Of a stretch of 64,000 nt of DNA, positions 19,172-49,666 are shown piece after piece; positions within the stretch are counted from its first letter, which is position 1; every line of letters begins with the position of its first letter. A program made the position numbers and the translations under genes. The notes beneath the pieces are model-generated. The model was given only the letters and a program-made list of their open reading frames with translations, was not told the DNA's origin and did no database searches. The DNA comes from Candidatus Nitrosotenuis sp. (GTDB lineage: Archaea; Thermoproteota; Nitrososphaeria; Nitrososphaerales; Nitrosopumilaceae): positions 6,983 to 70,982 of the forward strand of contig SCVO01000083.1 in the NCBI GenBank assembly GCA_004322465.1, read 5' to 3'.

Positions 19172-19185
19172 TTTACATTTGTAAA
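19172..19185. promoter_or_regulatory. Island box TTTACATTTGTAAA
   Basis: Palindrome about 9 nt upstream of TTAATATA. Confidence 0.75.
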
Positions 19186-19222
19186 GTCTTGTATTAATAT
19201 ATCTCATCTTCAAACCAAGATT

Positions 19223-19396
19223 GTGTTCGGATTACTTAAGAAGCGCTGCCCAGTGTGTGGAATGGATGTTGATAAGGACTCTTCCATCAAAAGATTTGGA
19301 AAATACTTTTGCTCGGCAGAACATGCAGAAAAGTTCGGTGAAACAAACGCATCTGGGCAAGAAGACGATTCTCACGGTCACGGCGGTTGCTGCTAG
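19223..19396 (+). CDS. Small YHS/TRASH-like metal-binding protein ending GGCC (paralog 1; absent from ORF track)
   Basis: GTG start: MFGLLKKRCPVCGMDVDKDSSIKRFGKYFCSAEHAEKF...HGHGGCC. Confidence 0.85.
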   Translation: MFGLLKKRCPVCGMDVDKDSSIKRFGKYFCSAEHAEKFGETNASGQEDDSHGHGGCC

Positions 19397-19424
19397 GTTT
19401 AGGCATGTTGTAAGGTGATTTGAG

Positions 19425-20183
19425 ATGTCTAATGAAAATCCTGGGAGAACAATAAGCATAACAAAAACAACCATCATTTTTGGCGTCGTCCTTTTGGTGT
19501 TGGGTTACTTCATAGGAAATACCATCCCAATTACGAGCAATATTGCCAAACAACAACCCAATATTGGTATGATAACGTCGACTGTTGGCCAAGACGACAC
19601 CTCTACGACCAAGTTCGCTGGAAGCGTAAATTTTGATGTCCCCTCCATAGCAAAATTCAGAGGATCCGAATCCGCGAGATTGAATTTGGTAGAGTTTGGA
19701 GATTACCAATGTCCATTCTGTGAAAAATTCTTTAAAGAAACCGAGCCGATACTTGCAAAAGAATACATCGATGCCGGCAAAGTAAAGTTCTACTTTCTTG
19801 ACGTCTCAATAGTTGGCCCAGATTCAATAATCCTTGCACAGGCATCCTGGTGTGCAAATGATCAAGACAAGTACTACGAATATCACGATTATGTGTATGC
19901 AAACCAAGGGCAGGAAAATTCCGGTTGGGGAACCCCTGACAAGGTAAAGAATCTTGTCAAGAACATTTCCGGAATTGATATTGAGAAATTCGGTCAATGC
20001 CTCGACAGCAAAAAATACGAATCACGCAGCCAACAATTGACAAGTTTTGCCAATCAGATCGGACTTACAGGAACACCAACTATGTTTGTCGGAAACTCGG
20101 AACTTGGCTATACAAAGATCACAGGGGCACAGCCGTATTCTGTATTCAAGCAGGTAATTGACAAATACCTAGAGCAAACCTAA
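19425..20183 (+). CDS. dsbA: DsbA-family oxidoreductase (second copy)
   Basis: EFGDYQCPFC, GLTGTPTMF, GAQPY. Confidence 0.9.
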   Translation: MSNENPGRTISITKTTIIFGVVLLVLGYFIGNTIPITSNIAKQQPNIGMITSTVGQDDTSTTKFAGSVNFDVPSIAKFRGSESARLNLVEFGDYQCPFCEKFFKETEPILAKEYIDAGKVKFYFLDVSIVGPDSIILAQASWCANDQDKYYEYHDYVYANQGQENSGWGTPDKVKNLVKNISGIDIEKFGQCLDSKKYESRSQQLTSFANQIGLTGTPTMFVGNSELGYTKITGAQPYSVFKQVIDKYLEQT

Positions 20184-20311
20184 TTTCTTTTCTTTGATAT
20201 TTTTTAACAATTGATCTCACAATCTTAAAGGATATTCAATTAGGCGCATAATTTTTATTTGCTTTTTACAGAACGCTAAAAACCGAAAATTTAATGGTTA
20301 TCAAGAGAAGA

Positions 20312-20914
20312 TCATATTTTTTCTGGTTCAGAGTGATTTGCATGGCCGCTCCCGCCACACCCGTCTTCCAGATCCCAGGCTTTGGCAATTTGCTTTTCAT
20401 CAAAGTTGTATTCTGTAATGAGATATTTTGCCTGCCCTTCAAATGCAGTCCACCTCCAGCACTTGCAGCAACAAGGGCCTCCTTCCATCGACATGCTCAT
20501 TGCCTTATCATACACTTGTTGCTGCTGCGCAGTCAGCACTATTTCCTTATCATAGGCAATCAGCCTTTTTGCAAGAGAAGCCTCGATATCATACGGATCA
20601 GACGGGATCACATCTATGCCGGAATACTGCTTTAGACCTTCAACTTGCTCTGCATATCGATGAAAGTCCATTTTTGAGCAGCAAGAGCCCTGCAACCTAT
20701 CGTTGTCAGCCTTTGCGTCCAGAAAATTTGAAGGCGCACAATAGTTCGTATTGGCGCTACTGAGGATGACAAATTTTTCTTCCAGACCGCCTGTCGGGCT
20801 GTCAACGCTGGACTTGAAATTCCCGCTCATTGCAAGAAAGGCAATCACTAGCAGTACAGGGAGTATTCCCATCAGCAGGTATTTTGTTTGTGGAAGTTGT
20901 ATTTTGCGTGTCAT
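20312..20914 (-). CDS. Membrane-anchored Cys-rich protein downstream of copA
   Basis: TM anchor; GSCC, GPCCCKCW, DGCGG. Confidence 0.75.
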   Translation of the reverse strand: MTRKIQLPQTKYLLMGILPVLLVIAFLAMSGNFKSSVDSPTGGLEEKFVILSSANTNYCAPSNFLDAKADNDRLQGSCCSKMDFHRYAEQVEGLKQYSGIDVIPSDPYDIEASLAKRLIAYDKEIVLTAQQQQVYDKAMSMSMEGGPCCCKCWRWTAFEGQAKYLITEYNFDEKQIAKAWDLEDGCGGSGHANHSEPEKI

Positions 20915-20936
20915 TGTCGGATTCTCAATGTGGTTT

Positions 20937-23351
20937 TTACTTCTTTTTTGGCGACCATCTTTTGAGCAGCAACGAGCTGCCTGTTACAGAAACAGAGCTT
21001 GTAGCCATCGCCACACCGGCAAGTGCCGGATAAAGCAAGCCCAGTCCCGCAATTGGAATTAGTGCTGCATTATACATAAAGGCGTAAAAGAGGTTCTGCT
21101 TTATTTTGCCGACGGTTTTTTTGCTGATCTCAATTGCAGTTACTACATCTCTAATGTCATTTCTTATCAGAACGACTTTGCCAGATTCAATTGCAATGTC
21201 AGTGCCACTACCTACTGCTATCCCCACATCTGCCTGAGTAAGAGCCGCGGCATCGTTAACGCCGTCTCCTGCCATGGCCACCTTTTTTCCTTCAGCCTGG
21301 AGTTTTTTTATGACATCAAGTTTGTCGGAGGGGAGAACGTTTGCAATTACCCTGTCTATGCCTATCTCCTTTGCCACGGTGCTTGCCGTTCTTTGATTGT
21401 CTCCCGTCAACATGATTACTTCGATTCCTTTTTCTTTTAGTGACTTTACAGCATCTTTTGCGCCAGGTTTTGCCGTGTCAATTAGTCCAAGTATTCCAAT
21501 AATCTCACCGTTCAAAGCAACAAGTATGGTGGTTTTTCCCTCACTTTGCAATCTTACGATTATCTCTTTGGCCTTTGAATCGTCGATCCCTCTCTCTATG
21601 ATAAATCCCTGGCTTCCGACAAGAATTTTTTGATTATCATATACTGCATCAACGCCTCTTCCGGGGACAGAGACAAACTCTGTTGGATCTGCGATCCCCA
21701 GGTTACGCTCTTGGGCGTCTTTAACGATTGACTTTGCCAAGGGGTGCTCTGAGTTTTTTTCTACCATTGCGGCGACTTGGAGAATTTTGTTTTCATCTGA
21801 CTTGTCATCAATTGGAATTATGTCGGTAACTTTCGGATTTCCTTCGGTGAGAGTGCCGGTTTTATCAAAAACAGCTACTGTGATCTTACCAAGATTTTCA
21901 AGAGCCTCACCGCTTTTGAATATGACACCGTTTTGAGCACTTTTACTCATTCCAACCATCACTGCAGTTGGGGTGGCAAGGCCAAGTGCACATGGACATG
22001 CAACCACCAAGACTGCCACCGCTGGAATGAGAGATGCTGCAAAGTGGTGCTCGCCATGCGCAGTAAATGCATACCATCCAAGAAAAGTCGCAATCGACAC
22101 GCCAATAACTACGAGTGCAAAATAGCCGGATATCTTGTCGACCATTCGTTGCATTGGGGGTTTCATACCCATCGCATCTTCGACTAGTTTTACAATTTGT
22201 GAAAGTGCACTCTCGCTGCCCACTTTTGTTGTCCTGATTACCAGAGCGCCGTCTTTGTTGACTGTGCTTCCTATCACGTAATCTCCTTGCTTTTTTTCAA
22301 CCGGCACAGATTCTCCCGTGATCATCGATTCATCCACTGCAGAGCGTCCTTCAATCACTATGCCATCGACAGGAATCTTTTCCCCCGGTCGCACCACAAT
22401 GATGTCATCCTGCTTTATCATCTCGATTGAGATGTCAGTTTCCTTTCCATCTTTTTTTATTCTGGCAGTTTTTGGTTGCAGCTCTAGCATCTTTTTGATA
22501 ATGGATGAAGCCTTGCCCTTTGTCTTGTTTTCAAGGTATTTTCCTAGAACGATGAATGTGATTACTACTGCGGCTGCGTCATAGTAGATGTTGTGCCATA
22601 CAGGAGTCGGGAATGTGTTGTATGCACTGAATAGATACGCCGCAGTGGTGCCGACTACAACAAGGGTATCCATGTTTGCAGATTTCATTTTTGCAATTCT
22701 GAACGCCCCGACGTAAAACCTGCTGCCTGCGATGAACTGTACCGCACTTGCGCAAACAAACATGACGTATCCTGCCATGGCAGTTCCGGCCCACGGAACA
22801 AACGAGAGATATTCAGGATATGCAAAAAGCAGAATTGGGATGGTAAATCCGAGTCCAATCAGGAACAATTTTTTGAGTTTTTTTGCCTCGATTTCTTCGG
22901 CCGATGCCGAAAGATCCTCGCTTAGTATCTGGTAACCGCGTTTGTGAATGAGTTGTCTGATGTCTGAAAGCGAAAATAATGCTTGATTGTATTCGATGAT
23001 TGCCTGACTATTTCCATAGTTTACAGATGCAAATCTAATCCCTTCAAGTTCACTTAACCTCTTTTCAAGATTACCTGCATCGCTTGAATCGGTGATTCCG
23101 CTTAGCTTGAGTGTGAGCTTTTCATAAATGACTTTGTAACCAACGTCCTGTATTGCGTCTTCGATCTTGCTTAGATCAATGGAAGAAGGATCAAACTCCA
23201 AGACAGCTTTTTCAGCAGCCAGATTAACTTCGCATTTTTTGACGCCGGGAAGATCCATTATGTAGTTTTGTATGGAATTTACACACCCGGCGCAGTGCAT
23301 ACCACCTATTTTTATTGCCGTTCGTTTGGTTTGGACTTGTTCTGAGTTCAT
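20937..23351 (-). CDS. copA: Cu(I)-transporting P1B-1 ATPase
   Basis: HMA GMHCAGC, CPC, DKTGT, HP, GDGVND, YN and MxxSS motifs. Confidence 0.95.
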
Positions 23352-23400: not shown

Positions 23401-23414
23401 TTTACAATTGTAAA
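23401..23414. promoter_or_regulatory. Island box TTTACAATTGTAAA between divergent copA and regulator
   Basis: Perfect palindrome. Confidence 0.8.
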
Positions 23415-23449: not shown

Positions 23450-23890
23450 ATGCCCTTCAAATTAGATAAAATCGACACGGATATTCTGGAATCGTTATTG
23501 GAGGACGGCCGAAAGTCTTTCCGGCAGGTTTCAAGAGAGATCAAAGTCAGCACGCCTACCGTCAAGGCAAGATATCAGAGACTCGTAAACATAGGCCTCA
23601 TAAAGGCAGTATTGCCAGTAATTGATCTTGGAAAAATCGAAGACAAGACGGGTTCAAGGCTTGATAAAATACGCTCAAAGGCAATAAAAAATCACAACAT
23701 AAAGCTGAGCAAAGATGCAGTCATAAAATTATCATGCGATTACTGCAAGGGTCCAGTTCACGGAAAGCCAAGCATACTCAAGTTTGCAATTTTTGAGAGA
23801 TTCTTTTGCTGCCCCTCATGTAAAACCCTCTACAAGGAAAAGCACAGGGGTAGAATACAAAGCCTTTCCGGCAAGGACTTACAAGCGTAA
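23450..23890 (+). CDS. AsnC/Lrp-type HTH + TRASH metal-sensing regulator (CopR/CopT-like)
   Basis: LDKIDTDIL..L.EDGRKSFRQ HTH; CDYC...FFCCPSC. Confidence 0.88.
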   Translation: MPFKLDKIDTDILESLLEDGRKSFRQVSREIKVSTPTVKARYQRLVNIGLIKAVLPVIDLGKIEDKTGSRLDKIRSKAIKNHNIKLSKDAVIKLSCDYCKGPVHGKPSILKFAIFERFFCCPSCKTLYKEKHRGRIQSLSGKDLQA

Positions 23891-23900: not shown

Positions 23901-24914
23901 TTAATTTTTAACATCAAAAATCCCAGTCCAGCCCTTTTCTGAAAATTCTACTTTGTGCGCATGAAACAGATATTTTCCGGGATACGTGTAATTGAATTCC
24001 ATTATTCCTCTCTCCGTTTGTGATAATGTGATCATGTCAGTATATGTGGAAGGAACTGTCGAGGTTCCTGTCGGATAATAATTGTACAGATTTCCATGTA
24101 AATGGAAATTGTTTATCGGATCAAACTCCACCATGTTTACTACATAGATTCTGATTAGATCATTTGCATTTATCTGGATTGGATTGTACTGGTAGTAAAA
24201 CGGAATCGTGTTTGCCGCGTAAAAGTTGTTTTCCTTGTCAAAATCCGTATCGAACCCGTTTAGGACCATTACCATCTCATCTGCCTTAGGCCTTGGTTCC
24301 TTTGGATCCACAATGTATACGCCATAAAGGCCGCGTGATATGTGTTCTTCAAGTGGCATCACATGGCAGTGATATGGGTGTACTCCAACTGGCCCTGCCT
24401 CAAACTCATAAGTGAACTGTCCACCTCCAGGGCCAACCGTTTCAAAAACTCCGTCCATTTCAGCTGGATGAATCCCATGAAAGTGAATCGTATGAGATTT
24501 TGAGCCGTTATTGATGAACTTGACTCGAATCATGTCACCTTCGGTTGCCCGGATTGTAGGACCTGGAACTGTGCCGTTGAAGGTCCAGACATTGTAAAAA
24601 ACTCCAGGTGAGATCTCTTCGATTTTATCATCTTCTGCTATTATTGTGAATTCGCGAAGGGTTTTTCCATCTTCCAGTTTTGAGATGCGGCCATAGTTGA
24701 ACTGTCGCAGATACTTGTCAGGGTCAAACTCGACAGTTTTGCCAGAATATATTGGATCCAAGATGTCGCCAGTTGTTTTGATTACTACGCCATTGTGGGA
24801 GACGAGTGTTTTCTCATCAGGTTTTGCATCAATTGTATTTGGAAAAACAAAATAAACTACAGTTATAGATGATATTGCTACTAATACGGTCAACATTTTA
24901 AAAAATTGTTTCAA
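23901..24914 (-). CDS. Two-domain multicopper oxidase
   Basis: HTIHFHG, YHCH...EH, NFHLHG, FHAH. Confidence 0.88.
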   Translation of the reverse strand: MKQFFKMLTVLVAISSITVVYFVFPNTIDAKPDEKTLVSHNGVVIKTTGDILDPIYSGKTVEFDPDKYLRQFNYGRISKLEDGKTLREFTIIAEDDKIEEISPGVFYNVWTFNGTVPGPTIRATEGDMIRVKFINNGSKSHTIHFHGIHPAEMDGVFETVGPGGGQFTYEFEAGPVGVHPYHCHVMPLEEHISRGLYGVYIVDPKEPRPKADEMVMVLNGFDTDFDKENNFYAANTIPFYYQYNPIQINANDLIRIYVVNMVEFDPINNFHLHGNLYNYYPTGTSTVPSTYTDMITLSQTERGIMEFNYTYPGKYLFHAHKVEFSEKGWTGIFDVKN

Positions 24915-25012: not shown

Positions 25013-25026
25013 TTTACAAGTGTAAA
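25013..25026. promoter_or_regulatory. Island box TTTACAAGTGTAAA
   Basis: Matches consensus; overlaps TTGTAAATTTACAA palindrome. Confidence 0.65.
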
Positions 25027-25102: not shown

Positions 25103-25726
25103 TTAGTCTGAACTCATAGATGTCTTGGTTAGCTTCATTATTATCCCACTAAACGTGATTGATCCCAAAAAATACCACGCCCAAAAATAGACTTCGTTTA
25201 CATTTTTGCAGATTTTTCCATCAATTTTTTCAGCACTGCAGGTAAGCTCAAAAAAGTTTCCAGGTATTACATTCAATGGGATTGGCGACATGGCGACAGT
25301 GTAAGAGAATAGTGGCGGCAATACTAGATAGAAAATCAACATCAGTGGAACAAAGGTTATCATCATTGGTCTCATGTTCATTTGCATCATTTCTTGGTTC
25401 AGTTTACTCATGTATGCTGATTTTTTGTTGAGCTCTGCTTGTTTTTCGATGTCTTTGGCTCTGAATGCTGACATTCTTTCTTTTTGCCAGGCTTTAGTTT
25501 CCCTCATTATTCTTTTGAGCTTGTCCGGATCAACGAGTTTTTTTCGTACAACCGCATTAAACAGGTTTAGAAGAACTGCAAATCCAATGATTCCAAACAT
25601 CGCAGGAATCATTCCTTTTACTATTGGATCCGCACTTCCAAGCGGTCCACGATTAAGAAGATCGGTTTGCAAAAATACAGATTGCAATAATTGTAATATT
25701 ATGATTGGTTCCATTTCAAAGACCAA
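25103..25726 (-). CDS. EMC3/TMCO1 (DUF106) family membrane insertase-like protein
   Basis: TM - coiled coil - MRPMMITFVP...WYF pattern. Confidence 0.85.
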   Translation of the reverse strand: MVFEMEPIIILQLLQSVFLQTDLLNRGPLGSADPIVKGMIPAMFGIIGFAVLLNLFNAVVRKKLVDPDKLKRIMRETKAWQKERMSAFRAKDIEKQAELNKKSAYMSKLNQEMMQMNMRPMMITFVPLMLIFYLVLPPLFSYTVAMSPIPLNVIPGNFFELTCSAEKIDGKICKNVNEVYFWAWYFLGSITFSGIIMKLTKTSMSSD

Positions 25727-25756: not shown

Positions 25757-25939
25757 TTAACAGCAACCGTCACGCCTTGGGTGCCACTTTTGATACTCTT
25801 CTTCTCGTCTTTCATCTTCTGCTATTTTTGCGCCGAACTGATTGGCGTGTTCATCATTACAAAAATGCTTTCCAAACCTTTTGACTTCAGTCTCTTTCTT
25901 TACCTCAATACCGCATACTCGACAATGTTTTTCAAACAT
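25757..25939 (-). CDS. Small YHS/TRASH-like protein ending DGCC (paralog 2)
   Basis: CRVCG...KRFGKHFCNDEHA. Confidence 0.85.
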   Translation of the reverse strand: MFEKHCRVCGIEVKKETEVKRFGKHFCNDEHANQFGAKIAEDERREEEYQKWHPRRDGCC

Positions 25940-25976: not shown

Positions 25977-25990
25977 TTTACAAATGCAAA
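25977..25990. promoter_or_regulatory. Island box TTTACAAATGCAAA
   Basis: One mismatch; 38-51 nt upstream of paralog 2. Confidence 0.6.
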
Positions 25991-26061: not shown

Positions 26062-26721
26062 CTAAACTTGTGGCTTTTTGAAAAACTCGTCAAGTTTTAC
26101 TTTTTTGCTTACCAAATTTGCAATGATAATTCCAAAAACAGTTCCACCAAAAACATCCATAGGATAGTGCTGGAGAACATAGACTCTACTAATTGATTCA
26201 AAGATAGGAAATAGCCAGATAAGGTATCGTCCCCTTGGGAATCTTTCTGATAAGGCATATCCAAGAACAAAGGCCACAATTGCTGCACGTGTTGCATGCC
26301 CTGATGGAAAAGAACCGTCAGTTCCGATAACAAAGGTGTCCTTACCTATTGCATATGGGAGATTTGAGCCTAAAAACTCGAGATCTGGCCGTGGGCTGTC
26401 AATTACATATCCCTTGAAGTATCCAGAGGCAAGTGTTCCAATCACTATGCACAGCAACAGGGTGATTCCTATTCTTCGTGTCCTGCGTATGATGGCAAGT
26501 ATGATGCTCAGAAGAAGAATTGATGTGACGCTGCCCACTTCGGTAATTCCCCACATGAAAAGATCCACTGCACGGTTTCCTGCAGCCGACTGAAAATATA
26601 GTAGAATTGACCTATCATAGCCCGAAGTAACGTGCGCTTGTACTAAAACAGACATTATGATAAAGGCAAGTACAAACAGAAGAAACGCCCTTGATCTAAC
26701 ATCGAACAACCAATTTTGCAA
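26062..26721 (-). CDS. PAP2-family membrane phosphatase
   Basis: K..I..PRP, SFPSGH, SRVYVLQHYPMDV. Confidence 0.9.
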   Translation of the reverse strand: MQNWLFDVRSRAFLLFVLAFIIMSVLVQAHVTSGYDRSILLYFQSAAGNRAVDLFMWGITEVGSVTSILLLSIILAIIRRTRRIGITLLLCIVIGTLASGYFKGYVIDSPRPDLEFLGSNLPYAIGKDTFVIGTDGSFPSGHATRAAIVAFVLGYALSERFPRGRYLIWLFPIFESISRVYVLQHYPMDVFGGTVFGIIIANLVSKKVKLDEFFKKPQV

Positions 26722-26971
26722 TTATAACGCACCTGAATGTGACATTTTAATTTCTCAAATCAGGTAAAACGGTATGCACTGTAAAATGTTTTGCAGGTTT
26801 GAGATATCGCAATTTGTTGGGAAAAAATAAAAGTTCTGATCTTAGCAATTGATTTGCGGTATTGGGGTTTGCATTCAAAAATGATCAATCACTAAAACCA
26901 TTTCACAGTTGAACTGTGTTTTAGAACTTTCAACACACTGTATTCTAATTCCAGATATATTAACACCCAAA

Positions 26972-26985
26972 TTTACAAATGTAAG
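26972..26985. promoter_or_regulatory. Island box TTTACAAATGTAAG
   Basis: Matches consensus; next to ATATATTAA. Confidence 0.7.
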
Positions 26986-27017: not shown

Positions 27018-27031
27018 TTTACAAACGTAAA
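27018..27031. promoter_or_regulatory. Island box TTTACAAACGTAAA
   Basis: Matches consensus. Confidence 0.7.
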
Positions 27032-27106: not shown

Positions 27107-27493
27107 TTGAGAATAAGAACAGTAACAGGGATGGCATTTGCAGCCATAATTTTGATCCTTGTGTATGTGGGAAACGTATTATTTTCCATTTATTTTGGGA
27201 AATCGTTTCTGCCATTAGATGTAACGACACTTGGAATAATCATAGGTATGCCTTCGGCAGCCTTGCAGATCATAGCATTTTTCTTGGCAAGAAAAACAAA
27301 ATCGAGATTTATTGGCCTGTTAATTCTCATCACGGGAATTCTAATGATGGGTGGTTCACTTGCCACAACCACGTCTAGTGATCAAAGCATTTCCGATTTG
27401 GAGTCTTTTGGGAAACACATCGCGGCATTTTTGCCTGTTATGGTTTTGGGTATGTTCATTGTCATTTTGGGCATAAGCAAGCTAAACGACTAG
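27107..27493 (+). CDS. Four-TM membrane protein (paralog of 32465-32854)
   Basis: Shared FLPLD..T.G..G.PS motif. Confidence 0.75.
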   Translation: MRIRTVTGMAFAAIILILVYVGNVLFSIYFGKSFLPLDVTTLGIIIGMPSAALQIIAFFLARKTKSRFIGLLILITGILMMGGSLATTTSSDQSISDLESFGKHIAAFLPVMVLGMFIVILGISKLND

Positions 27494-27559: not shown

Positions 27560-28750
27560 CTAGTTGGAAGATCTCTCTTTCAGTATGGTAGTCAATTTAA
27601 TCGTGCTGCCGTCTCTGTTTACCTCTAATGCTATTTTATCGCCTACATTTTTGTTTTCAGATAGATACATTATCAATTCTGTAATGTCTTTTATTTTATG
27701 TTCGTCAACTGAGGTTATGACGTCACCACTCTTAATTTCTTGATTGATGTTATAGGTGGCTTCGCGCAACCCTGCTTTTTCTGCTGGGCTATCTTTTACG
27801 ACTTTTGTGACGAGAACTCCCTTGTAGTTCTTTGGAAGATCTAATTTTTTGACAATATCTGAAGTTAAGCTCGTTCCAGCTATTCCAAGCCAAGGGTGAC
27901 TGTACCCACCCTTCTCAATTAACATAGGAACAATCTTTTTGATGGCATTAGATGGAATTGCGAAACCGACGCCGGCAAACTCGCCCGTATTGGATTGAAT
28001 TGCAGTATTGATTCCTATGACTTTGCCCCACTGGTTCAGCAAGGGGCCGCCAGAGTTGCCCGGATTTATTGCAGCATCGGTTTGTATTACATTAGGTATG
28101 GAAAAGCCTTCCTGATTTGGAAGGAGTCGACCAATCTGACTCACTATGCCCGCAGTCATTGTACCGCTTAATCCAAAAGGATTTCCTATCGCAACCACCT
28201 GATCCCCAACTTCAATTTTAGACGAGTCGCCCAAAACTAGGGGTATGATGATCTCTTCAGATAAATCATCCATGATCTGTAAAACCGCAATATCGATGGA
28301 GGGATCTGTCCCAGTAACGTTGGCAGAATAAGTATTGCCATCTACAAATGTAACATCAACCGTTTTTGAGCCCTTTATGACGTGATTGTTGGTAATTATC
28401 AGGCCCGAATCCGAATATATGAATCCAGACCCGAGTTTTGTTGATTGTTTTTCCAATGGATTTCCGTTTACTGTGATGTCCGAATTCGTCTCAGATACCT
28501 TGCTTGTTATTTGGACGACTGAATTCTCTGTGCGTTTAAAGATCGATGATAACGACAGAACTTCATTAGAACCAGTTACATCACTTGAGATTGATGTTTG
28601 AACGTCTTTTGTCTCTGGCTGCCTTTCAATGACTTTAATCTCTTCGGCACGACTTTCTGAGCTTCTGCCAAAATTTGTAAAAACACCAATTAGAAGCAAA
28701 ACGCCCAAGATTCCTATTGTCGTCAACTGTATTGTTTGGCGACTTTTCAC
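27560..28750 (-). CDS. htrA: HtrA/DegP-like serine protease with PDZ domain
   Basis: ITNNHV, IDIAVL, GNPFG, QTDAAINPGNSGGPL. Confidence 0.95.
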   Translation of the reverse strand: MKSRQTIQLTTIGILGVLLLIGVFTNFGRSSESRAEEIKVIERQPETKDVQTSISSDVTGSNEVLSLSSIFKRTENSVVQITSKVSETNSDITVNGNPLEKQSTKLGSGFIYSDSGLIITNNHVIKGSKTVDVTFVDGNTYSANVTGTDPSIDIAVLQIMDDLSEEIIIPLVLGDSSKIEVGDQVVAIGNPFGLSGTMTAGIVSQIGRLLPNQEGFSIPNVIQTDAAINPGNSGGPLLNQWGKVIGINTAIQSNTGEFAGVGFAIPSNAIKKIVPMLIEKGGYSHPWLGIAGTSLTSDIVKKLDLPKNYKGVLVTKVVKDSPAEKAGLREATYNINQEIKSGDVITSVDEHKIKDITELIMYLSENKNVGDKIALEVNRDGSTIKLTTILKERSSN

Positions 28751-28849
28751 TCAACACACCGACTCTAGAGCCTCAACTGACGGCATTTTGCTATTTGAAG
28801 AGTTTTTCAATATTGACTCTGTATCGACTACGGGATGCACGTAACTCAC
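28751..28849 (-). CDS. 32-aa upstream ORF in frame with htrA, separated by one TGA
   Basis: GTG 22-30 nt after TTAATATAT; MSYVHPVVDTESILKNSSNSKMPSVEALESVC*. Confidence 0.35.
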   Translation of the reverse strand: MSYVHPVVDTESILKNSSNSKMPSVEALESVC

Positions 28850-28887
28850 GCCGACTCTGGGCAGTGCGAGATATATTAACACAGTAA

Positions 28888-28901
28888 TTTACAAACGTAA
28901 A
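28888..28901. promoter_or_regulatory. Island box TTTACAAACGTAAA
   Basis: Upstream of TATA for htrA. Confidence 0.7.
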
Positions 28902-30596: not shown

Positions 30597-30650
30597 TGAT
30601 TCACATCATGACTTTTGGTTTGATATTTTACTTTTGTGAATGTAGGCGAC

Positions 30651-30664
30651 TTTACAATTGTAAA
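30651..30664. promoter_or_regulatory. Island box TTTACAATTGTAAA
   Basis: Perfect palindrome between divergent genes. Confidence 0.8.
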
Positions 30665-30702: not shown

Positions 30703-30849
30703 ATGAACAAAGATCCTGTATGCAATATGAATCTCTCTGATGATTCAACTTCAGTATCTTCGCAATTTGAAGGCAAAACTTACTACTTTTGCTGTCCGTC
30801 ATGCAAGAATGTATTTGAAAAAAACCCTCAAAAGTTCAAACAACAATGA
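30703..30849 (+). CDS. YHS-domain protein (absent from ORF track)
   Basis: MNKDPVCNM...EGKTYYFCCPSCKNVFEKNPQKF. Confidence 0.9.
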   Translation: MNKDPVCNMNLSDDSTSVSSQFEGKTYYFCCPSCKNVFEKNPQKFKQQ

Positions 30850-30947: not shown

Positions 30948-30961
30948 CTTACGTTTGTAAA
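30948..30961. promoter_or_regulatory. Island box CTTACGTTTGTAAA (partial second copy just upstream)
   Basis: Upstream of regulator paralog 2. Confidence 0.7.
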
Positions 30962-30998: not shown

Positions 30999-31442
30999 AT
31001 GCCTATTAAACTGGACTCGATTGACACTGCTATTCTTAATGCCTTGTCAAAAGATGGCCGTAAATCATTCCGGCAGATGGCAAGAGAGATAGGAGCTAGC
31101 GCACCAACAGTAAAACTCAGGTATGAACGTCTTGTCAGTGTAGGTCTGATAAAATCTGTTTCACCAGTACTGGATCTCAGTAAAATAACTAGGACCGCCA
31201 AAGACAAACTGGACAATAATCTAACAAAAACACAGACAAACCAAATTGATCTTGAAAATGAGATTCTTCTTGATGTGGACTGTGAGTATTGTAAGGCACA
31301 AATTGCAGGAAAGCCGCTTACCTTGAAAATACTAGAACAGGAGCGGTTTTTCTGTTGTACCTCGTGCCGCTCGCTTTACAAAGAAAAGTATCGTGGAAGA
31401 ATAGACGCATTACTGTCAAAAGAATCAGCGAATAACGTCTGA
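30999..31442 (+). CDS. AsnC/Lrp HTH + TRASH regulator (paralog 2)
   Basis: Clearly similar to 23450-23890; CEYC...FFCCTSC. Confidence 0.88.
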   Translation: MPIKLDSIDTAILNALSKDGRKSFRQMAREIGASAPTVKLRYERLVSVGLIKSVSPVLDLSKITRTAKDKLDNNLTKTQTNQIDLENEILLDVDCEYCKAQIAGKPLTLKILEQERFFCCTSCRSLYKEKYRGRIDALLSKESANNV

Positions 31443-31454: not shown

Positions 31455-31468
31455 TTTACGTTTGTAAA
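31455..31468. promoter_or_regulatory. Island box TTTACGTTTGTAAA upstream of tfb
   Basis: About 10 nt upstream of TTATATA. Confidence 0.75.
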
Positions 31469-31508: not shown

Positions 31509-32468
31509 TTGTTGGCAAAGAAATCTACATGTCCTGAAAGAAATGACAAGGTTGACGCGTTAAACGGACCCGTTCCTCAAAATGGCAAAATTGATTATTC
31601 ATCCAGACATGACCATAAATCTGAGGAAAATCTGATCCTAGACAAAGAAAGCGACGAAGTCATTTGCAACATATGTGGCAGAGTTGTGATGGATAAAGAA
31701 TATTCGACACTTGGGCAAAACCCTTCCCAAAATGGACTCGATCAAGAAGATTTCAAAACAGCATCTTCAAGAATGTATGACAAAGGTTTGCCTACGATCA
31801 TGGGCTCTATTCACAAAGATTTTGGAGGCAAATCACTAGCAACTGATGCAAAAGATAAGTTTGGTAGATTGCGTCTTTTGGACAACCGTATCAAGTTGCA
31901 ATCGTTTAGCACTACTGTTGTGAAATCATTTTCCTTACTTGATGGGGTTAAAACAAAACTTGCAATACCTGATCACACTGCGGAAAAAGCAGTCTATCTT
32001 TTTAGAAAATTAATGGCAAAACAACCACGACAAGCAAGACTCTACACGTCAATGATTCTTGCGTCGCTTTACGCAGCATGCAAGCTTACAGGTACCCCAC
32101 GTACCATGCAAGAAATAGCCACAGCTGCGGATGTAAAAAAACGACGAATACTGCGAGACTATCGAATCCTAGTTGAAGCATTAGACTTGAGTTTTGAGCC
32201 CTACAAGCCATCCGAATTTGTTACAAGAATTTGCACAGGTCTTAGTCTGACCGAAAAAACTCGCCGACAGGCAATTTCAATATTATCGAAAGTAACACAA
32301 GATGTATTTTATGGAAAGAATCCAATTGCCTTGGCTGCGGCCGCAGTTTACATCTCATGCAAAAATAATACTGAACGAATAAACCAATTACGAATAGCAA
32401 GTTTGGTCGGGATAAGTAATGTCTCGTTAAGGAACATGTATGTTCTGCTGAGGGGAAACATAGCATGA
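31509..32468 (+). CDS. tfb: Transcription initiation factor B (accessory paralog)
   Basis: Degenerate Zn ribbon (..ICNICG), DKGLPT, two cyclin repeats, GKNPIALAAAAVY, C-terminal HTH. Confidence 0.92.
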   Translation: MLAKKSTCPERNDKVDALNGPVPQNGKIDYSSRHDHKSEENLILDKESDEVICNICGRVVMDKEYSTLGQNPSQNGLDQEDFKTASSRMYDKGLPTIMGSIHKDFGGKSLATDAKDKFGRLRLLDNRIKLQSFSTTVVKSFSLLDGVKTKLAIPDHTAEKAVYLFRKLMAKQPRQARLYTSMILASLYAACKLTGTPRTMQEIATAADVKKRRILRDYRILVEALDLSFEPYKPSEFVTRICTGLSLTEKTRRQAISILSKVTQDVFYGKNPIALAAAAVYISCKNNTERINQLRIASLVGISNVSLRNMYVLLRGNIA

Positions 32469-36997: not shown

Positions 36998-37011
36998 TTT
37001 ACAAATGTAAA
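36998..37011. promoter_or_regulatory. Island box TTTACAAATGTAAA
   Basis: Between divergent copA2 and paralog 3. Confidence 0.75.
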
Positions 37012-40432: not shown

Positions 40433-40572
40433 TTTTCCTCACCCACAAACTGCTTTGGATTCTTTTCAAATGCCCACTTACAGCTGGCGCAGCAAAAACG
40501 ATACTCTTTATTGTTGTATGTGATGGACTCGGATTTTTCGCTTACTTCAGAGCCGCAGACTGGATCTTTCAT
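40429..40572 (-). CDS. YHS-domain protein (absent from ORF track)
   Basis: MKDPVCGSEV...NKEYRFCCASCKWAFEKNPKQF; 4-nt overlaps with both neighbours. Confidence 0.9.
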   Translation of the reverse strand: MKDPVCGSEVSEKSESITYNNKEYRFCCASCKWAFEKNPKQFVGEEK

Positions 40573-41726
40573 TGCATCCCCACCATTCCTTTCATTCCAT
40601 CAGGCAGACCTTCAGACAGGCCAAGTATTTGCATGGAATCAAGACCGATATTGAATAGCAATGCACTCCATACCAGGACAATTGCAAGTATTTTCAGAGC
40701 TTGTTTACGTTCCTGTGGATATTTGCGCCAATACCAGAAAACTGGCACTGCCGAAACAATCAGGTTAAGTAACGCCCCATATTCCATAAAGGGAACTTTC
40801 TCCTCTATTTGTCCAATTGGAATGGCTGCCTCGCCTATCATTTTTCCTCCAGTCGCCATGAAAGCCACGTTGAGGCCCTCATGGAACACACCACCCTCAT
40901 ACCAAAGATGACCAAAGGCACCATTAAGTACGATAAACGATCCAAGAACAACTAATGCCCACCCAGTAAATTTTCGTACAGCCTCAACTCTTTTTACAAG
41001 CCCGCCAGTCGCGTTGACTCCTAAAATTCCAAGTGCGCTAAGAAGAAGAAGCGGAATAACTCTTCCCGCCCCGTTTATTGCCATCAAAAGGCCTCCCTGC
41101 AGCCAGTCTCCAGTAGACGCAGAAAATATCAGTATGATGTATGTCACAGGATTCGGGCAACCGACACCAGCATTACCTAAAAGCAACCCAAGAAGAAACA
41201 CCTTGGTGTAATCTCGTTGTTTTTGAATAAATTGCGGCATGCCAGAGTATGTAGGTATTTTGAATTTGATCAGCTTCAATTCCGAAAGACCAAAGACAAA
41301 GGCCGCAATTCCTGCAGCGGCATACATTATTCTTGTTGCGCTGTCAAGGCCAACATATTTCCCGATTTGTGCCACTGCAGCCCCATAAATCGACAACGTT
41401 ATGATCAATCCAATTCCAAAGAGGGCGGCCATGATCAGCCCTTTTTTCCCTGAAGTGCCCATTGCAATTGGAACTATGATGAATACGAGCGGAAGAGTGC
41501 AAGGAAGTACAATATTGGATACTCCTCCGGTAAAGGAAAGGAGCATTGTAAGCGTAGTTGCCGGCGTTGTTGCGAGATAGATAAAACCAAAAAGCGTAAT
41601 GGATCCGAGAACAAAAATTGCAACAACTAGGAATGACTTGAATCTTTTTCCTTCCTGTGCCTGAACGCTCATTATTTGTGGCTCCAATTCGTCTTTAATG
41701 TCATCTATTTTAAAGACCCAAGCCAA
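40569..41726 (-). CDS. ccdA: CcdA/DsbD-family transmembrane electron transporter
   Basis: LPCTLP and GCPNP Cys motifs, multiple TM. Confidence 0.85.
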   Translation of the reverse strand: MAWVFKIDDIKDELEPQIMSVQAQEGKRFKSFLVVAIFVLGSITLFGFIYLATTPATTLTMLLSFTGGVSNIVLPCTLPLVFIIVPIAMGTSGKKGLIMAALFGIGLIITLSIYGAAVAQIGKYVGLDSATRIMYAAAGIAAFVFGLSELKLIKFKIPTYSGMPQFIQKQRDYTKVFLLGLLLGNAGVGCPNPVTYIILIFSASTGDWLQGGLLMAINGAGRVIPLLLLSALGILGVNATGGLVKRVEAVRKFTGWALVVLGSFIVLNGAFGHLWYEGGVFHEGLNVAFMATGGKMIGEAAIPIGQIEEKVPFMEYGALLNLIVSAVPVFWYWRKYPQERKQALKILAIVLVWSALLFNIGLDSMQILGLSEGLPDGMKGMVGMQ

Positions 41727-41755: not shown

Positions 41756-41783
41756 TTTACAAATGTAAACATACATCTGTAAA
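41756..41783. promoter_or_regulatory. Island box TTTACAAATGTAAA plus adjacent ATACATCTGTAAA
   Basis: Tandem sites between divergent operons. Confidence 0.75.
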
Positions 41784-41861: not shown

Positions 41862-42044
41862 ATGTTTGAAAAACATTGCCTGATTTGTGGCATCGACGTT
41901 GACAAGACAGCACCAAAAAGATTTGGCAAATACTTTTGTTCAGAAGATCACGCTCAGCAATACGTAACAAAAAGAGAAGAGCAGGAAAGAGCAATGGCCG
42001 AAGAAGAAAGGAAAAATCCCCGTAGAGGTGGAGGCTGTTGCTAA
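41862..42044 (+). CDS. Small YHS/TRASH-like protein ending GGGCC (paralog 4)
   Basis: CLICG...KRFGKYFCSEDHA. Confidence 0.88.
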   Translation: MFEKHCLICGIDVDKTAPKRFGKYFCSEDHAQQYVTKREEQERAMAEEERKNPRRGGGCC

Positions 42045-42045
42045 C

Positions 42046-42549
42046 ATGGTTAGCAAATACGCATTAATCGGAGTGTCAGTAGGCGTATTCTTTGTAGGAC
42101 TTGGAATAGGCTATGCTGCTTTCACAAATGTATACAATCCTAATGCGATGTTCCAAAACCCACAATTTATGCAAACCATGCTAAATGATCCCCAGCACAT
42201 GCGAGCCATGATGCAAAATCCGTTATTTATGCAGCAAACGTTGGAGCATATGAAACAGAATCATCAATTCTCACAAGATATGATGTCTTCCATGATGGTG
42301 GATGAGCAGCTAAGTCAGCAGATGATGGGTATGGTGATGCAAGACCCACAACACGTGCAACAAATGTCAAAAGCAATGAAAGAAAATCACGAGTTTATGC
42401 AGAAAATGATGCTTTCCATCATAAACGATCCCGACCTGAGATTACAAATGCTTGGGCACATGACGGAAAATCAAGAAGCAATGCAACAAATGAGAAACAT
42501 GATGCAAGGAAACATGACCAGCTCTGGCATGATGATGGGTGGAAACTAA
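42046..42549 (+). CDS. Membrane-anchored Met/Gln/His-rich helical repeat protein
   Basis: TM then M..DPQ repeats. Confidence 0.75.
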   Translation: MVSKYALIGVSVGVFFVGLGIGYAAFTNVYNPNAMFQNPQFMQTMLNDPQHMRAMMQNPLFMQQTLEHMKQNHQFSQDMMSSMMVDEQLSQQMMGMVMQDPQHVQQMSKAMKENHEFMQKMMLSIINDPDLRLQMLGHMTENQEAMQQMRNMMQGNMTSSGMMMGGN

Positions 42550-43613: not shown

Positions 43614-43702
43614 CGATCAAACTACATAGGAATTCCAGAAGGCAACTCGTAGTTTTGTTTTAAAACACTTCAAAGATTATCAATTGTAAAGTTCATCGAA
43701 AT

Positions 43703-43716
43703 CTTACATTTGTAAA
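43703..43716. promoter_or_regulatory. Island box CTTACATTTGTAAA
   Basis: About 10 nt upstream of TTATACA. Confidence 0.75.
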
Positions 43717-43754: not shown

Positions 43755-44564
43755 ATGTCAAATAACAAATACCGGCTTGGAACGATTATGGCGATATTTG
43801 TCTTGAGCATGAGCCTGACAACATTTCAAACAACTGGCAAATCCAATGGTTTTGCGGCATATGCTCAGACTGCATCAAAAACGACAGGGGATTCAGAAAA
43901 ACTGCTAAAGGATCCACAATTTCGTCAAAAAATCATCGATAGCATGAAAAAAGATCATGAAATTGCCCAGGACTTGATCATGGCAATGATAAATGATCCT
44001 GCCTTGCGTTTGCAGCTGATGGGCCATCTAACGGAAAGCAAGGCAGCAATGCAAGATCTGGCTAAACTCTTTGGACAAAATGCAACTAAAATCAGTGCAA
44101 CTGGAATGATAGATCATGGAAGCATGTCCATGAAGGACTCGATGAAAGATCAAATGAAGAAGGATGCCAAGAAAGAACCGATGAAAAGTGACTCGATGAA
44201 AAAGAACTCTGGAACGATGGATCATGGAAGCATGTCCATGGAAAAAGACTCGATGAAGATAGGAACATCGGCAAATGTTGACTTCAGTAACGTCAAAATC
44301 ACAAACATCTCGGCAAACAGTGCAACCATACAAGGAAGTACAAACCAGGCTGTAAACTGCCAAGTTGAATACTGGTCTGCAAAAGATCCAAAACACTACT
44401 TTGCATCTGATACTGGAGACATGATGGATATGAAACACACCGATCATACTGTGACAATCAAGAGCCTTATGCCGAATACGACATATAATTACAAATTCAA
44501 GGCAACACTTGACGGAAAGATATTCTACTCAAACCAGCAGACATTCGCCACAAAGGCAGCATAA
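43755..44564 (+). CDS. Exported Met/His-rich protein with C-terminal fibronectin-III-like domain
   Basis: Signal peptide, DHGSMSM x2, H.VTIKSLMPNTTYNY. Confidence 0.8.
   Translation: MSNNKYRLGTIMAIFVLSMSLTTFQTTGKSNGFAAYAQTASKTTGDSEKLLKDPQFRQKIIDSMKKDHEIAQDLIMAMINDPALRLQLMGHLTESKAAMQDLAKLFGQNATKISATGMIDHGSMSMKDSMKDQMKKDAKKEPMKSDSMKKNSGTMDHGSMSMEKDSMKIGTSANVDFSNVKITNISANSATIQGSTNQAVNCQVEYWSAKDPKHYFASDTGDMMDMKHTDHTVTIKSLMPNTTYNYKFKATLDGKIFYSNQQTFATKAA
44112..44240. repeat. 21-bp direct repeat GATCATGGAAGCATGTCCATG (44112, 44220) encoding DHGSMSM
   Basis: Exact copies. Confidence 0.85.
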
Positions 44565-45696: not shown

Positions 45697-46347
45697 TTAG
45701 AAATGCTTGTGATGGTCTGCTACTGTCATTAATGCAGCATATTTAGAGGCAAGATCGGCTGTTTTTTTATCATCCGCACTTGCTATGATTATGGCGTCGT
45801 CATTTTGTGGTAAAAGATTCTCCATTATTGATTCTCTTATCTTACGCTCATTTTTCAACGAGTCTTGGGTTTGCCCCGGCATCAGGAATCTTTTGTTTTT
45901 GTACACTAGCGTGGTGGCTCCAGTTGCGCCCATGAATTTGGCAAAATCTCTCTGTTCAAGCCCTGAATTGATTTCAGAGCCAAATCCTTTTAGCAAGACA
46001 GCATGATTGAATGTTCCTAACCCTATTGAACATTTTTGAATTGGGGATTCGCGTGGAACAGTAGCAGATATTTTTGAATAAAGGATTTTTCCTTTTTCTG
46101 ATAATCGCATCCCTCCTTTTGAGGTCTCTACAAGCCCGTGCATTTTTAGGTGTTTTACCAGTGTTTTCACGGACCCTTCACCCAGACCAAGATCGGCAAC
46201 GAGAGTCATTCTACTCACTCTGATTTGTTCACTGGCCAGCTGCATGGTTTTGAAGACATGCGCTATGTTAAAGCTAAGTACTCTACTTGGTGAATATCTG
46301 TCAGCTACTTTTGTGAGTGTCTTGATCACCTGATGCACAGAAATCAA
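45697..46347 (-). CDS. HTH transcriptional regulator (DUF4443-like)
   Basis: SRMTLVADLGLGEGSVKTL wHTH; EQRDFA...GA.GATTL. Confidence 0.75.
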   Translation of the reverse strand: MISVHQVIKTLTKVADRYSPSRVLSFNIAHVFKTMQLASEQIRVSRMTLVADLGLGEGSVKTLVKHLKMHGLVETSKGGMRLSEKGKILYSKISATVPRESPIQKCSIGLGTFNHAVLLKGFGSEINSGLEQRDFAKFMGATGATTLVYKNKRFLMPGQTQDSLKNERKIRESIMENLLPQNDDAIIIASADDKKTADLASKYAALMTVADHHKHF

Positions 46348-46635: not shown

Positions 46636-46645
46636 GTGAATCGTC

Positions 46646-48565: not shown

Positions 48566-48633
48566 ATCTGCAGTTTGTCTTGTGAAACAACACACAAAAA
48601 CATCTTGCAAAATTTGAATCGATGCGGGTTAAT

Positions 48634-48647
48634 CTTACGTTTGTAAA
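48634..48647. promoter_or_regulatory. Island box CTTACGTTTGTAAA upstream of tbp
   Basis: About 10 nt upstream of TTAAATA. Confidence 0.75.
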
Positions 48648-48679
48648 GTATGTTGGTTAAATATGATCTAAAGTGCATC

Positions 48680-49240
48680 ATGCATGTGCTACAAACAAAA
48701 CCAGTAATCACCATACAGAATGTGGTGGCCTCGGCATCAGTCGGACAAAGAATAGATCTCGATCTTGTCACAAAGATCTTTCCCGATGTAGAGTACAACC
48801 CTGACCAATTCCCAGGACTGGTCTTCAGGCTGGAATCTCCGATGACTGCAACATTGATTTTTCGTACCGGCAAAATGGTCTGTACAGGATCAAAATCCGA
48901 AGAAAAAGCAATCCAAGCAGTAGGACTTGTGGTACAAAATCTCCGAACGGGCGGCATAAAAATAGAAAATGATGCAGTAATAACAATCCAGAACATAGTC
49001 GCTTCTGCAGACTTGGGCAGCAGAATACACTTGGAGGAGGCAGCAAGAACGTTGCCGCGAAGCATGTACGAGCCAGAACAGTTTCCCGGCCTCATATACA
49101 GAATGCCTGATCCAAAAACAGTGAGCCTGATCTTTGCATCAGGAAAAATAGTGTGCACCGGCGCAAAGAAGGAATCCGAAGTACACAGATCAGTACACAC
49201 ACTGCATGCGTTGCTTGAAGAAAAAAAGCTGATGGTCTAG
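48680..49240 (+). CDS. tbp: TATA-box-binding protein (accessory paralog)
   Basis: Two repeats IQNVVAS...YNPDQFPGL / IQNIVAS...YEPEQFPGL. Confidence 0.96.
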   Translation: MHVLQTKPVITIQNVVASASVGQRIDLDLVTKIFPDVEYNPDQFPGLVFRLESPMTATLIFRTGKMVCTGSKSEEKAIQAVGLVVQNLRTGGIKIENDAVITIQNIVASADLGSRIHLEEAARTLPRSMYEPEQFPGLIYRMPDPKTVSLIFASGKIVCTGAKKESEVHRSVHTLHALLEEKKLMV

Positions 49241-49257
49241 TTCTTTGTTTTTACAAA

Positions 49258-49566
49258 TTAGAGTTTCACAGCGTCATCAATGCTTGAAATTATGACAAGT
49301 CCTTTACTTCCATCGCCTACATGTTTTTTTATTTTTGTTACTATCGAGTCAACCAGTTTGTCCTCTACAACAGCAACAATACAGTCAACCATGTTGAACA
49401 TGGATTCTTGCATTTTTACTCCTCGTTGGCCATGTACTTTAGATCGTTCTGCGTCTCCACGCCCTCGTGCATAAAAGACAGTCAGCCCTTTCTGACCTGC
49501 TTGCTCTATCACCTCGACTATCTGCTCCAGTTTTCCAGATTGAAGATAGACTTCAATTTTTTTCAT
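49258..49566 (-). CDS. P-II-like signal transduction protein
   Basis: MKKIEVY...KGLTV...GRG...G.V.IS.IDD. Confidence 0.85.
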   Translation of the reverse strand: MKKIEVYLQSGKLEQIVEVIEQAGQKGLTVFYARGRGDAERSKVHGQRGVKMQESMFNMVDCIVAVVEDKLVDSIVTKIKKHVGDGSKGLVIISSIDDAVKL

Positions 49567-49652
49567 TGATGACGGAAGATGCTTGCCAAGTATAAACATA
49601 TTCGTCGAGATGTCTACAAAAAAACCATCTGCTAAAAATTATCAAATTTAAA

Positions 49653-49666
49653 TTGACATTTGTAAA
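49653..49666. promoter_or_regulatory. Island box TTGACATTTGTAAA
   Basis: One mismatch to consensus. Confidence 0.55.

Follow-up and report, generated by a model that had tools for sequence, protein, structure and literature searches.

The 14-bp palindromic box TTTACAWWTGTAAA, which recurs at the promoters of a copper-resistance island in a metagenome-assembled genome of Candidatus Nitrosotenuis (Nitrosopumilaceae) from groundwater, is very probably the operator of CopR-type regulators, a reading to which sequence comparison lends a probability of roughly 0.85. The window, i.e. the whole stretch of DNA analyzed, comprises 64 kb of contig C66 of this assembly (1.68 Mb in 126 contigs, 92% complete, 42.6% G+C; G000 among the compared genomes). 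The island, measured as the span of the boxes, covers about 31 kb or 1.8% of the genome and is 89% coding, with copper genes located between approximately 16 and 50 kb of the window. The operator reading rests on the restriction of the box to copper loci, its conservation in copR promoters, its co-occurrence with the regulator among 151 genomes, its fixed phase relative to the TATA element and its agreement with the CopR box of Pyrococcus. The complete model, in which the operator of some 15 promoters belongs to a CopR-type protein and Cu(I) switches on their activation, is favored with more reserve; the binding protein, the copper response and the sign of the regulation are what we infer. The original prediction for this DNA had taken the box for the operator of CopR/CopT-like proteins governing a metal regulon that includes HtrA, PAP2, TFB and TBP genes, and all computational tests that were run support it.

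Occurrence of the box in the window, the genome and the family

The pattern TTTACANNTGTAAA is found six times without mismatch in the window, where 0.01 copies are expected, and allowing for up to two mismatches yields 28 sites against 5.3 expected, a number that none of 100 shuffled sequences reaches. Fifteen copies had originally been announced; the motif is indeed present at all 15 positions, provided that degenerate copies are counted together with the six exact ones. Each of the 15 sites is non-coding, as is only 11% of the island; small open reading frames (ORFs) missed by the list of longest ORFs were added before coding and non-coding positions were called. The boxes, with the promoter elements around them and the genes that they are predicted to drive, are the following (downstream refers to the direction of the gene):

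19172..19185, exact (TTTACATTTGTAAA): TATA-like TTAATATA 8 nt downstream; Cys-rich 57-aa ORF (19223-19396, plus strand) and DsbA-like gene
23401..23414, exact: midway between the divergent copA1 and copR1 genes (98 bp), with a TATA-like element about 9 nt off on either side; orthologous loci are arranged alike
25013..25026, exact: 98 nt in front of the two-domain multicopper oxidase gene, without a distinct TATA at the usual offset
25977..25990, one mismatch: on the minus strand TTAAAATA 8 nt downstream, ATG 37 nt away; Cys-rich 60-aa ORF (25757-25939, minus strand) and EMC3/DUF106 gene
26972..26985, one mismatch: on the minus strand TTAATATA 8 nt downstream, toward the PAP2 phosphatase gene, start 250 nt off
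27018..27031, one mismatch: on the plus strand ATAAATAT 9 nt downstream; gene of a 128-aa membrane protein
28888..28901, one mismatch (reverse complement TTTACGTTTGTAAA): on the minus strand TTAATATA 8 nt downstream; HtrA gene
30651..30664, exact: two-mismatch partner at 30627-30640; YHS ORF (plus strand) and spermine-synthase-like gene (minus strand)
30948..30961, two mismatches (CTTACGTTTGTAAA): followed by GTACTGTTG, TTAAATAT, 20 nt and the ATG of copR2
31455..31468, one mismatch (TTTACGTTTGTAAA): followed by TTACTGTTG and TTATATAC; accessory TFB gene
36998..37011, exact: between the CopB-like YHS-ATPase gene (minus strand) and a Cys-rich 59-aa ORF (37093-37272, plus strand)
41756..41769, exact: adjacent two-mismatch copy at 41770-41783; between the DsbD-like gene (minus strand) and a Cys-rich 60-aa ORF (41862-42044, plus strand)
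43703..43716, one mismatch (CTTACATTTGTAAA): two-mismatch copies on either side at 43677 and 43727; TTATACAT 9 nt downstream, ATG 38 nt away; gene of a secreted Gln/Met-rich protein
48634..48647, two mismatches (CTTACGTTTGTAAA): next come GTATGTTGG and TTAAATAT; the accessory TBP gene begins with its ATG 32 nt past the box
49653..49666, one mismatch: between the P-II-like gene (minus strand) and the BNR/sortilin-like gene (plus strand)

Analysis of the remainder of the genome reveals that six of its eight exact copies, and 15 of its 27 copies with at most one mismatch, are contained in the island, that is, within 1.8% of the sequence (binomial P = 1.4e-19). The motif is thus far from equally frequent genome-wide, a comparison which the original prediction had itself proposed. 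The flanking elements, in which no box had been noticed there, hold one copy with one mismatch (4009) and one with two (3205) outside 19-50 kb of the window, both within ORFs. One exact copy on contig C33 lies between the divergent genes of a 795-aa P-type ATPase and a 145-aa AsnC-TRASH protein, which are 69% and 72% identical to CopA1 and CopR1 of the island, respectively. Another, on contig C50, is located upstream of the gene of a 702-aa YHS-ATPase sharing 80% identity with the CopB-like pump of the island, and faces in addition a small Cys-rich ORF and the gene of a Gln/Met-rich protein, each with a paralogue in the island. A position matrix trained only on the copR promoters of other genomes recovers 12 sites scoring at least 16 in this genome and none in simulated sequence. 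Eight of these belong to the island, two are the C33 and C50 sites and the rest lie inside genes, so that all intergenic sites at this score are at copper loci. Matrix sites and C33/C50 copies together indicate a motif specific to copper loci and not just to the island. The weaker matrix matches that were inspected (C4, C6, C18, C43, C56, C71, C90 and C108) were rejected as chance hits, all of them lying within ORFs away from copper genes; the ORF holding the C4 match is, as an exception, a DUF192 homologue. The third P1B ATPase of the window (61433-63457) belongs to the Cd/Zn (IB2) type, and its gene neighbors those of Orc1/Cdc6 (60348-61331) and an integrase (58803-60008). It has no box, which argues that the operator is specific to Cu-type loci.

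The comparison was extended to 24 copR loci from Nitrosotenuis, Nitrosotalea, other Nitrosopumilaceae, a Nitrososphaeraceae contig and unclassified Thaumarchaeota. In 16 of these orthologous loci the box, exact or with one to two mismatches, is located 30-46 nt before the copR ATG, and in a 17th (L003) at 58 nt; the sequences surrounding the box differ, and protein identity falls as low as 50%. Two contigs bear doubtful labels: L019 (JAJCYI010000193.1), binned as 'Saprospiraceae bacterium', contains a thaumarchaeal-type copR with boxes, and L007 (JBDUUJ010000016.1), labeled Nitrososphaera, a Nitrosotenuis-like copR of 72% identity; both are probably mis-binned. Scanning 151 Nitrosopumilaceae genomes yielded 316 exact boxes against 78 matches to the reversed control pattern. 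At least one exact box is present in 58 of the 60 genomes with the regulator (mean 3.9) compared with 51 of the 91 without it (mean 0.9).

Moreover, in the complete congeneric genome G045 the island has a rearranged homologue whose 16 boxes lie at equivalent promoters, and identity over 11 orthologous promoter pairs amounts to 94% within the box as against 70% in the 60-nt flanks. Since the three copR copies and the TFB gene of the island were found only in G000 and in one of nine sampled congeners (G045), the island must be considered accessory. Even denser clusters surround copR in other genera: G132 packs 26 boxes into 27 kb, G142 17 into 19 kb and G017 10 into 7 kb. A core of copR, HtrA, spermine-synthase-like and DsbA-like genes recurs in them, to which DsbD and multicopper oxidase genes are added in G132 and G142. 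The term 'island-wide regulon' used at the outset is therefore too narrow, given the C33 and C50 loci, the presence of the box in most Nitrosopumilaceae and these denser clusters; the box is a predicted family-wide operator whose regulon is enlarged in accessory clusters.

The idea that the repeats are a compositional or repeat-element artefact devoid of any regulatory role could invoke the A/T-richness of the motif in a genome of 43% G+C. It is nevertheless given practically no credence, in view of the shuffled sequences, none of which equals the observed counts, of the reversed control pattern, four times rarer across the 151 genomes, and of the sites themselves, which are limited to non-coding DNA, keep a fixed TATA phase and persist where their flanks diverge.

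The CopR-type regulators and the geometry of the box promoters

Two candidate regulators are encoded in the island, and a third paralogue is found on the chromosome (C33). As originally stated, a box precedes each island copy, at 23401 for copR1 and at 30948 for copR2:

CopR1, 23450..23890, plus strand: 146 aa, AsnC-type helix-turn-helix (HTH), 37-aa linker and TRASH domain
CopR2, 30999..31442, plus strand: 147 aa, AsnC-type HTH and TRASH domain, 53% identical to CopR1

The HTH is recognized by PF13404 with 46.2 bits in CopR1 and 49.1 bits in CopR2, and the TRASH domain by PF08394 with 28.4 and 29.7 bits (cut-off 27 in both cases); the HTH region matches the PDB entries of LrpC and FL11. Cysteines C96, C99, C120, C121 and C124 are invariant across 23 orthologues. 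The orthologues are short, 140-149 aa in 21 of 22 cases, the remaining one (L012) being 169 aa long. The copA1 (minus strand) and copR1 (plus strand) genes diverge from a region of 98 bp, an arrangement repeated on C33. In the AlphaFold2 model of CopR1, residues 1-50 have predicted local distance difference test (pLDDT) values of 74-90, the linker stays below 50, the TRASH domain is moderate and the mean is 67.6; the model says nothing on the dimer. The 37 residues between HTH and TRASH do not form a beta-alpha-beta-beta-alpha-beta fold in this model. A RAM-like domain makes Lrp proteins octamers, and regulators lacking it may, in our view, be the reason why discrete perfect dyads are found here and not a weak motif in wrapped DNA. 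A division of labor between CopR1 and CopR2, with perfect dyads for one and CTTACR-type sites for the other, was considered and is possible, but weakened: position 6 swaps between A and G in orthologous promoters of this genome and G045, and G132, where only one regulator was detected as against two in G017, likewise has CTTAC-type sites.

Read toward the gene, the box is separated by 8-9 nt (kTACTGTTG in many cases) from a TATA-like octamer, which is TTAATATA, TTAAATAT or TTATATAC, and the start codon comes some 20-22 nt further on; at nine promoters the distance from box to ATG is 32-41 nt. A TATA matrix was derived de novo from 190 promoters of this genome, in which the TATA element starts at about -30 from the ATG, implying that transcripts are mostly leaderless, and the TFB-recognition element (BRE) is weakly A-rich. 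As the box promoters share this geometry, the box would span approximately -53 to -40, directly upstream of the BRE. Among 76 boxes from five islands and three genera, 57% have a strong TATA within 24 nt as against 15% of random positions, and the offset shows a single sharp peak at 8 nt (20 of 50 matches, with 8 more at 9-10 nt) where the control is flat. The fixed spacing proposed in the original prediction is therefore real, with its maximum at 8 nt and fewer cases at the 9-10 nt given there. In intergenic regions between divergent genes, as at copA1/copR1, a single box is flanked in either direction by a TATA-like element at a distance of about 9 nt. The BRE region of box promoters (kTACTGTTG) is not A-rich, unlike that of the average promoter of the genome, which suggests an intrinsically weak recruitment of TFB. 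For the boxes at 26972 and 28888, both with a canonical TATA, the distance to the annotated start downstream is 250 nt (PAP2, 26722-26971) and 137 nt (HtrA, 28751-28887), respectively; these gaps could correspond to long leaders, unrecognized small ORFs or wrong start codons.

Known operators and the sign of regulation

The CopR protein of P. furiosus (PF0739), composed of HTH and TRASH domains and divergent from copA, binds the semi-palindrome TTNNCAWWWTGNNAA directly upstream of the BRE as determined by chromatin immunoprecipitation sequencing, footprinting and electrophoretic mobility shift assays; it activates copA and uses the same site to repress its own promoter (Grünberger et al. 2021, PMC7830388). 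The related CopR/CopT proteins of S. solfataricus, T. onnurineus and H. salinarum (VNG1179C) were included in the comparison. The two systems share an AsnC-type HTH and TRASH regulator, one box between the divergent core promoters of copR and the Cu-ATPase gene, the half-sites TTNNCA and TGNNAA, and a box upstream of the BRE at many promoters, as befits a global regulator. They differ in the center of the box, 2 bp here (14-bp box) and 3 bp in P. furiosus, and in its symmetry, mostly perfect dyads versus a weak semi-palindrome. Further differences are the short regulators without detected RAM-like oligomerization domain, the two island paralogues with a chromosomal third, the carriage on an accessory island, and a regulon rich in envelope thiol-redox, protease and multicopper oxidase genes together with TFB and TBP. 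Compared with known CopR regulons, the novelty is thus a distinct 14-bp operator, short RAM-less regulators and a much larger, envelope-centered target set, as well as the accessory-island carriage and the TFB and TBP paralogues within the predicted regulon.

Archaeal Lrp/FFRP (feast/famine regulatory protein) operators, e.g. that of Ss-LrpB (TTGYAWWWWWTRCAA), are the next point of comparison, and the activators Ptr2 and LysM bind upstream of the BRE. A/T-centered dyads, an AsnC/Lrp-type winged HTH and an upstream-of-BRE site used for activation are common to both. On the other hand, the present box is of even length with a 2-bp center, the effector domain is TRASH and not RAM, and binding is predicted to occur at a single site at most promoters rather than at cooperative arrays.

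CopY is a bacterial repressor whose operator overlaps the sigma-70 promoter, whereas the box described here lies upstream of an archaeal BRE/TATA; both are dyad operators before Cu-ATPase genes, copper-responsive in the case of CopY and predicted to be so here. The Firmicute CopY/CopR cop box has been defined by a 10-bp core, TACANNTGTA, and refined to a 16-bp operator, RNYKACANNTGTMRNY (O'Brien et al. 2020, PMC7253601). The core (KACANNTGTA) occurs 12 times in the window, including 8 of the 15 boxes, and the 16-bp operator has no match in the window. The likeness to a CopY box noted in the original prediction accordingly extends to the core but not to the full operator. Its statement that no CopY is encoded agrees with our search for the BlaI/CopY/MecI family (Penicillinase_R, PF03965), which gave no hit in the 92%-complete genome and hits in 8 of 14 control genomes. 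The resemblance reflects either convergence or coincidence, and the closest known analogue is not the CopY box but the P. furiosus CopR box (PMC7830388), which the original prediction did not cite.

As to the mechanism, we propose that the short CopR sensors (AsnC-type winged HTH, linker of about 37 aa, Cys-rich TRASH) would bind the box, most likely as one dimer per palindrome, and that the approximately 15 box promoters would control about 30 genes of the 31-kb accessory copper island including both regulators. By analogy with the CopR proteins of P. furiosus, S. solfataricus and H. salinarum, the regulator would stay on the DNA and become an activator upon binding of Cu(I) to TRASH; activated CopR may then help TFB and TBP to load at promoters with a non-consensus BRE. 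The presence of the same box at the native chromosomal copA-copR and copB-like loci leads us to expect cross-talk between the regulators of host and island.

Between activation and derepression we lean, by analogy and somewhat beyond an even chance, toward activation, on account of the upstream-of-BRE position, the BRE that is not A-rich and the behavior of three characterized homologues. The main alternative is that the same operator and regulators obey a repressor logic, in which apo-CopR would block the access of TFB to the BRE and Cu(I) would release or reshape the complex. A winged-HTH dimer bound 8-9 nt from the TATA would indeed abut or overlap the BRE, many box promoters have a near-consensus TATA (e.g. 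TTAATATA, TTAAATAT), which fits a repressed strong promoter equally well, and, besides the autorepression by P. furiosus CopR, the protein of T. onnurineus is reported as a repressor (cited in PMC7830388). Derepression nevertheless appears distinctly the less probable sign, since copA is under positive control in P. furiosus, S. solfataricus 98/2 and H. salinarum, as knock-outs of the homologues demonstrate according to that article, sites upstream of the BRE are the typical position of archaeal activators and the kTACTGTTG sequence suggests weak TFB recruitment.

That a different factor recognizes the box, such as the DUF4443 HTH protein of the island (45697-46347) or the accessory TFB acting through an extended upstream promoter element, is very unlikely. 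The island does encode further HTH proteins and its own TFB and TBP, and the box-TATA spacer is strikingly conserved in one promoter subclass. However, an orthologue of this TFB is present in 2 of the 151 genomes and the box in 109; the box clusters of G132, G142 and G017 contain no DUF4443 homologue detectable by tblastn and always contain copR; the box is also found in copA-copR promoters of loci without any island; and a perfect dyad suits a homodimeric HTH protein, not TFB.

Several observations weigh against the CopR reading and temper it, in addition to the near-consensus TATA elements and the T. onnurineus repressor mentioned above. PF01037 (AsnC_trans_reg) does not match CopR1 or CopR2 and no RAM-like middle domain was found in them, so the octamer-wrapping mechanism proposed for Pyrococcus may not be transferable here. 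The literal 15-bp Pyrococcus consensus (TTNNCAWWWTGNNAA) has a single match here, at chance level and inside a gene; since it is not enriched, operator homology rests on half-site form and position. The association of box and regulator (Fisher P = 6e-9, Mann-Whitney P = 6e-15) is uncorrected for phylogeny, and some genomes without a detected regulator carry boxes (the 51 of 91 given above). Finally, the public sequencing runs matching the sequence are DNA metagenomes only, and no RNA run matched.

Accessory basal factors and other genes of the island

Two basal transcription factors are among the predicted targets:

TFB paralogue, 31509..32468, plus strand: followed by a TM129 gene and a DUF192 gene on the same strand
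TBP paralogue, 48680..49240, plus strand: one of four genomic TBP genes

None of the seven other TFB hits of the genome exceeds 37.5% identity with the island TFB. This protein has a single close orthologue among the 151 genomes, in G045 (69% identity), and the promoter of that orthologue reads CTTACATTTGTAAA-GTACTGTTG-TTATATAC. Both proteins contain one CxxC knuckle (VICNICG) and a conserved RHDHK in place of the first knuckle, indicating an atypical zinc ribbon (HxH...CxxC); the start codon of the island TFB is uncertain because the N-terminal 30 codons are not conserved in G045. The nearest relative of the island TBP is likewise found in G045 (89% identity), behind the promoter CTTACGTTTGTAAA-GTACGTTGG-TTAAATAT with a second perfect box 87 nt upstream. 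In the copper cluster of G017, which belongs to another genus, a non-orthologous TFB (33% identical to the island TFB) has the promoter CTTACAATTGTAAA-GTACTGCTC-TTAATTAT, then 20 nt and the ATG. Promoter boxes are missing from all 49 generic TFB loci, and likewise from the 28 housekeeping TBP loci that were inspected; together with G045 and G017, this makes the link between box and accessory basal factors specific and recurrent. It is tempting, though doubtful, to envisage a copper-induced switch of basal factors in which the box-driven TFB and TBP, both carried on a mobile copper island, would direct RNA polymerase toward further promoters of a second tier, perhaps those of the subclass with the module CTTACRTTTGTAAA-GTACTGTTG-TTAWATAT. 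The promoters of copR2, tfb and tbp belong to this subclass themselves, and the switch would then feed back positively.

Family annotation of the window proteins with Pfam and NCBIfam profiles gives the island two Cu-type P1B ATPases that exceed the TIGR01511 cut-off (one contains two HMA domains, the other YHS), a three-domain and a two-domain multicopper oxidase, DsbA-like and DsbD-like proteins, HtrA and M50 proteases, a PAP2 phosphatase, a spermine-synthase-like membrane protein, an Usp protein, CbtA, a P-II-like protein, a BNR protein, a YHS mini-protein and four paralogous Cys-rich ORFs of 57-60 aa (MFEKHCxxCG...GGCC), besides the two regulators, one TFB and one TBP. The genes referred to above are located as follows:

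19425-20183, plus strand: DsbA-like
20937..23351, minus strand: CopA1, Cu-type P1B ATPase with two HMA domains (TIGR01511 575 bits, cut-off 397)
23901-24914, minus strand: two-domain multicopper oxidase
25103-25726, minus strand: EMC3/DUF106
26062-26721, minus strand: PAP2 phosphatase
27107-27493, plus strand: 128-aa membrane protein
27560-28750, minus strand: HtrA protease
28932-30596, minus strand: spermine-synthase-like membrane protein
30703-30849, plus strand: 48-aa YHS-domain ORF
33571-34653, minus strand: M50 protease
34688-36865, minus strand: CopB-like YHS-ATPase, followed by the M50 protease gene
40569-41726, minus strand: DsbD-like
42028-42549, plus strand: Gln/Met-rich protein, after the Cys-rich ORF 41862-42044
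43755-44564, plus strand: secreted Gln/Met-rich protein with a PAP_N/fn3-like domain, predicted to be driven by box 43703
49258-49599, minus strand: P-II-like
49796-50755, plus strand: BNR/sortilin-like

The Cys-rich ORFs, overlooked by the list of longest ORFs, constitute with a copy on C50 (3215-3400) a family of 57-61 aa (MFEKHCxxCG...KRFGKYFCSxxHAxQ...GGCC), and every member is the first gene after a box. The four copies of the island match no Pfam or NCBIfam family significantly, and we regard these ORFs as candidate CopM-like metallochaperones. Secreted or membrane proteins with Gln/Met-rich repeats (MMQDPESRQQMM...) are also encoded downstream of boxes (42028-42549, 43755-44564 and C50:3387-3929); their Pfam matches are only sub-threshold and to unrelated families, and they may be Met-rich Cu(I) binders. 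The island is flanked by integrases, an Orc1/Cdc6 gene, defense modules and the Cd/Zn-type P1B ATPase without box; no tRNA gene was found within the window when the borders of the island were considered. Flanking defense and mobile genes (6410-15884 and 53883-61331), namely HerA-like, ThiF/JAB, AbiEii, integrase and Orc1/Cdc6, also surround the G045 island (C1:1572-1624 kb) with 58-95% identity. The copper genes lying between them have changed their order in G045, with the TBP/P-II/BNR block at another place and no CopB-like, M50, PAP2, EMC3 or two-domain multicopper oxidase gene.

Ammonia-oxidizing archaea depend on copper enzymes for nitrification, and copper is also toxic to them. Among the literature searched, no paper describes this box or regulon in ammonia oxidizers; in the transcriptome of N. 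viennensis, the motifs associated with copper limitation differ from the box, and the regulation of cop genes is called an open question (PMC7785015). The present analysis makes that question concrete, with a sharp operator, a candidate sensor and a predicted regulon that can be read from most Nitrosopumilaceae sequences. This regulon points to a copper response centered on the envelope (Dsb proteins, HtrA, multicopper oxidases) and not to efflux alone, and the box-controlled TFB and TBP paralogues would provide a rare handle on the role of the many thaumarchaeal TFB copies. Moreover, the island illustrates how a horizontally acquired resistance module may plug into the regulator of its host through a shared operator.

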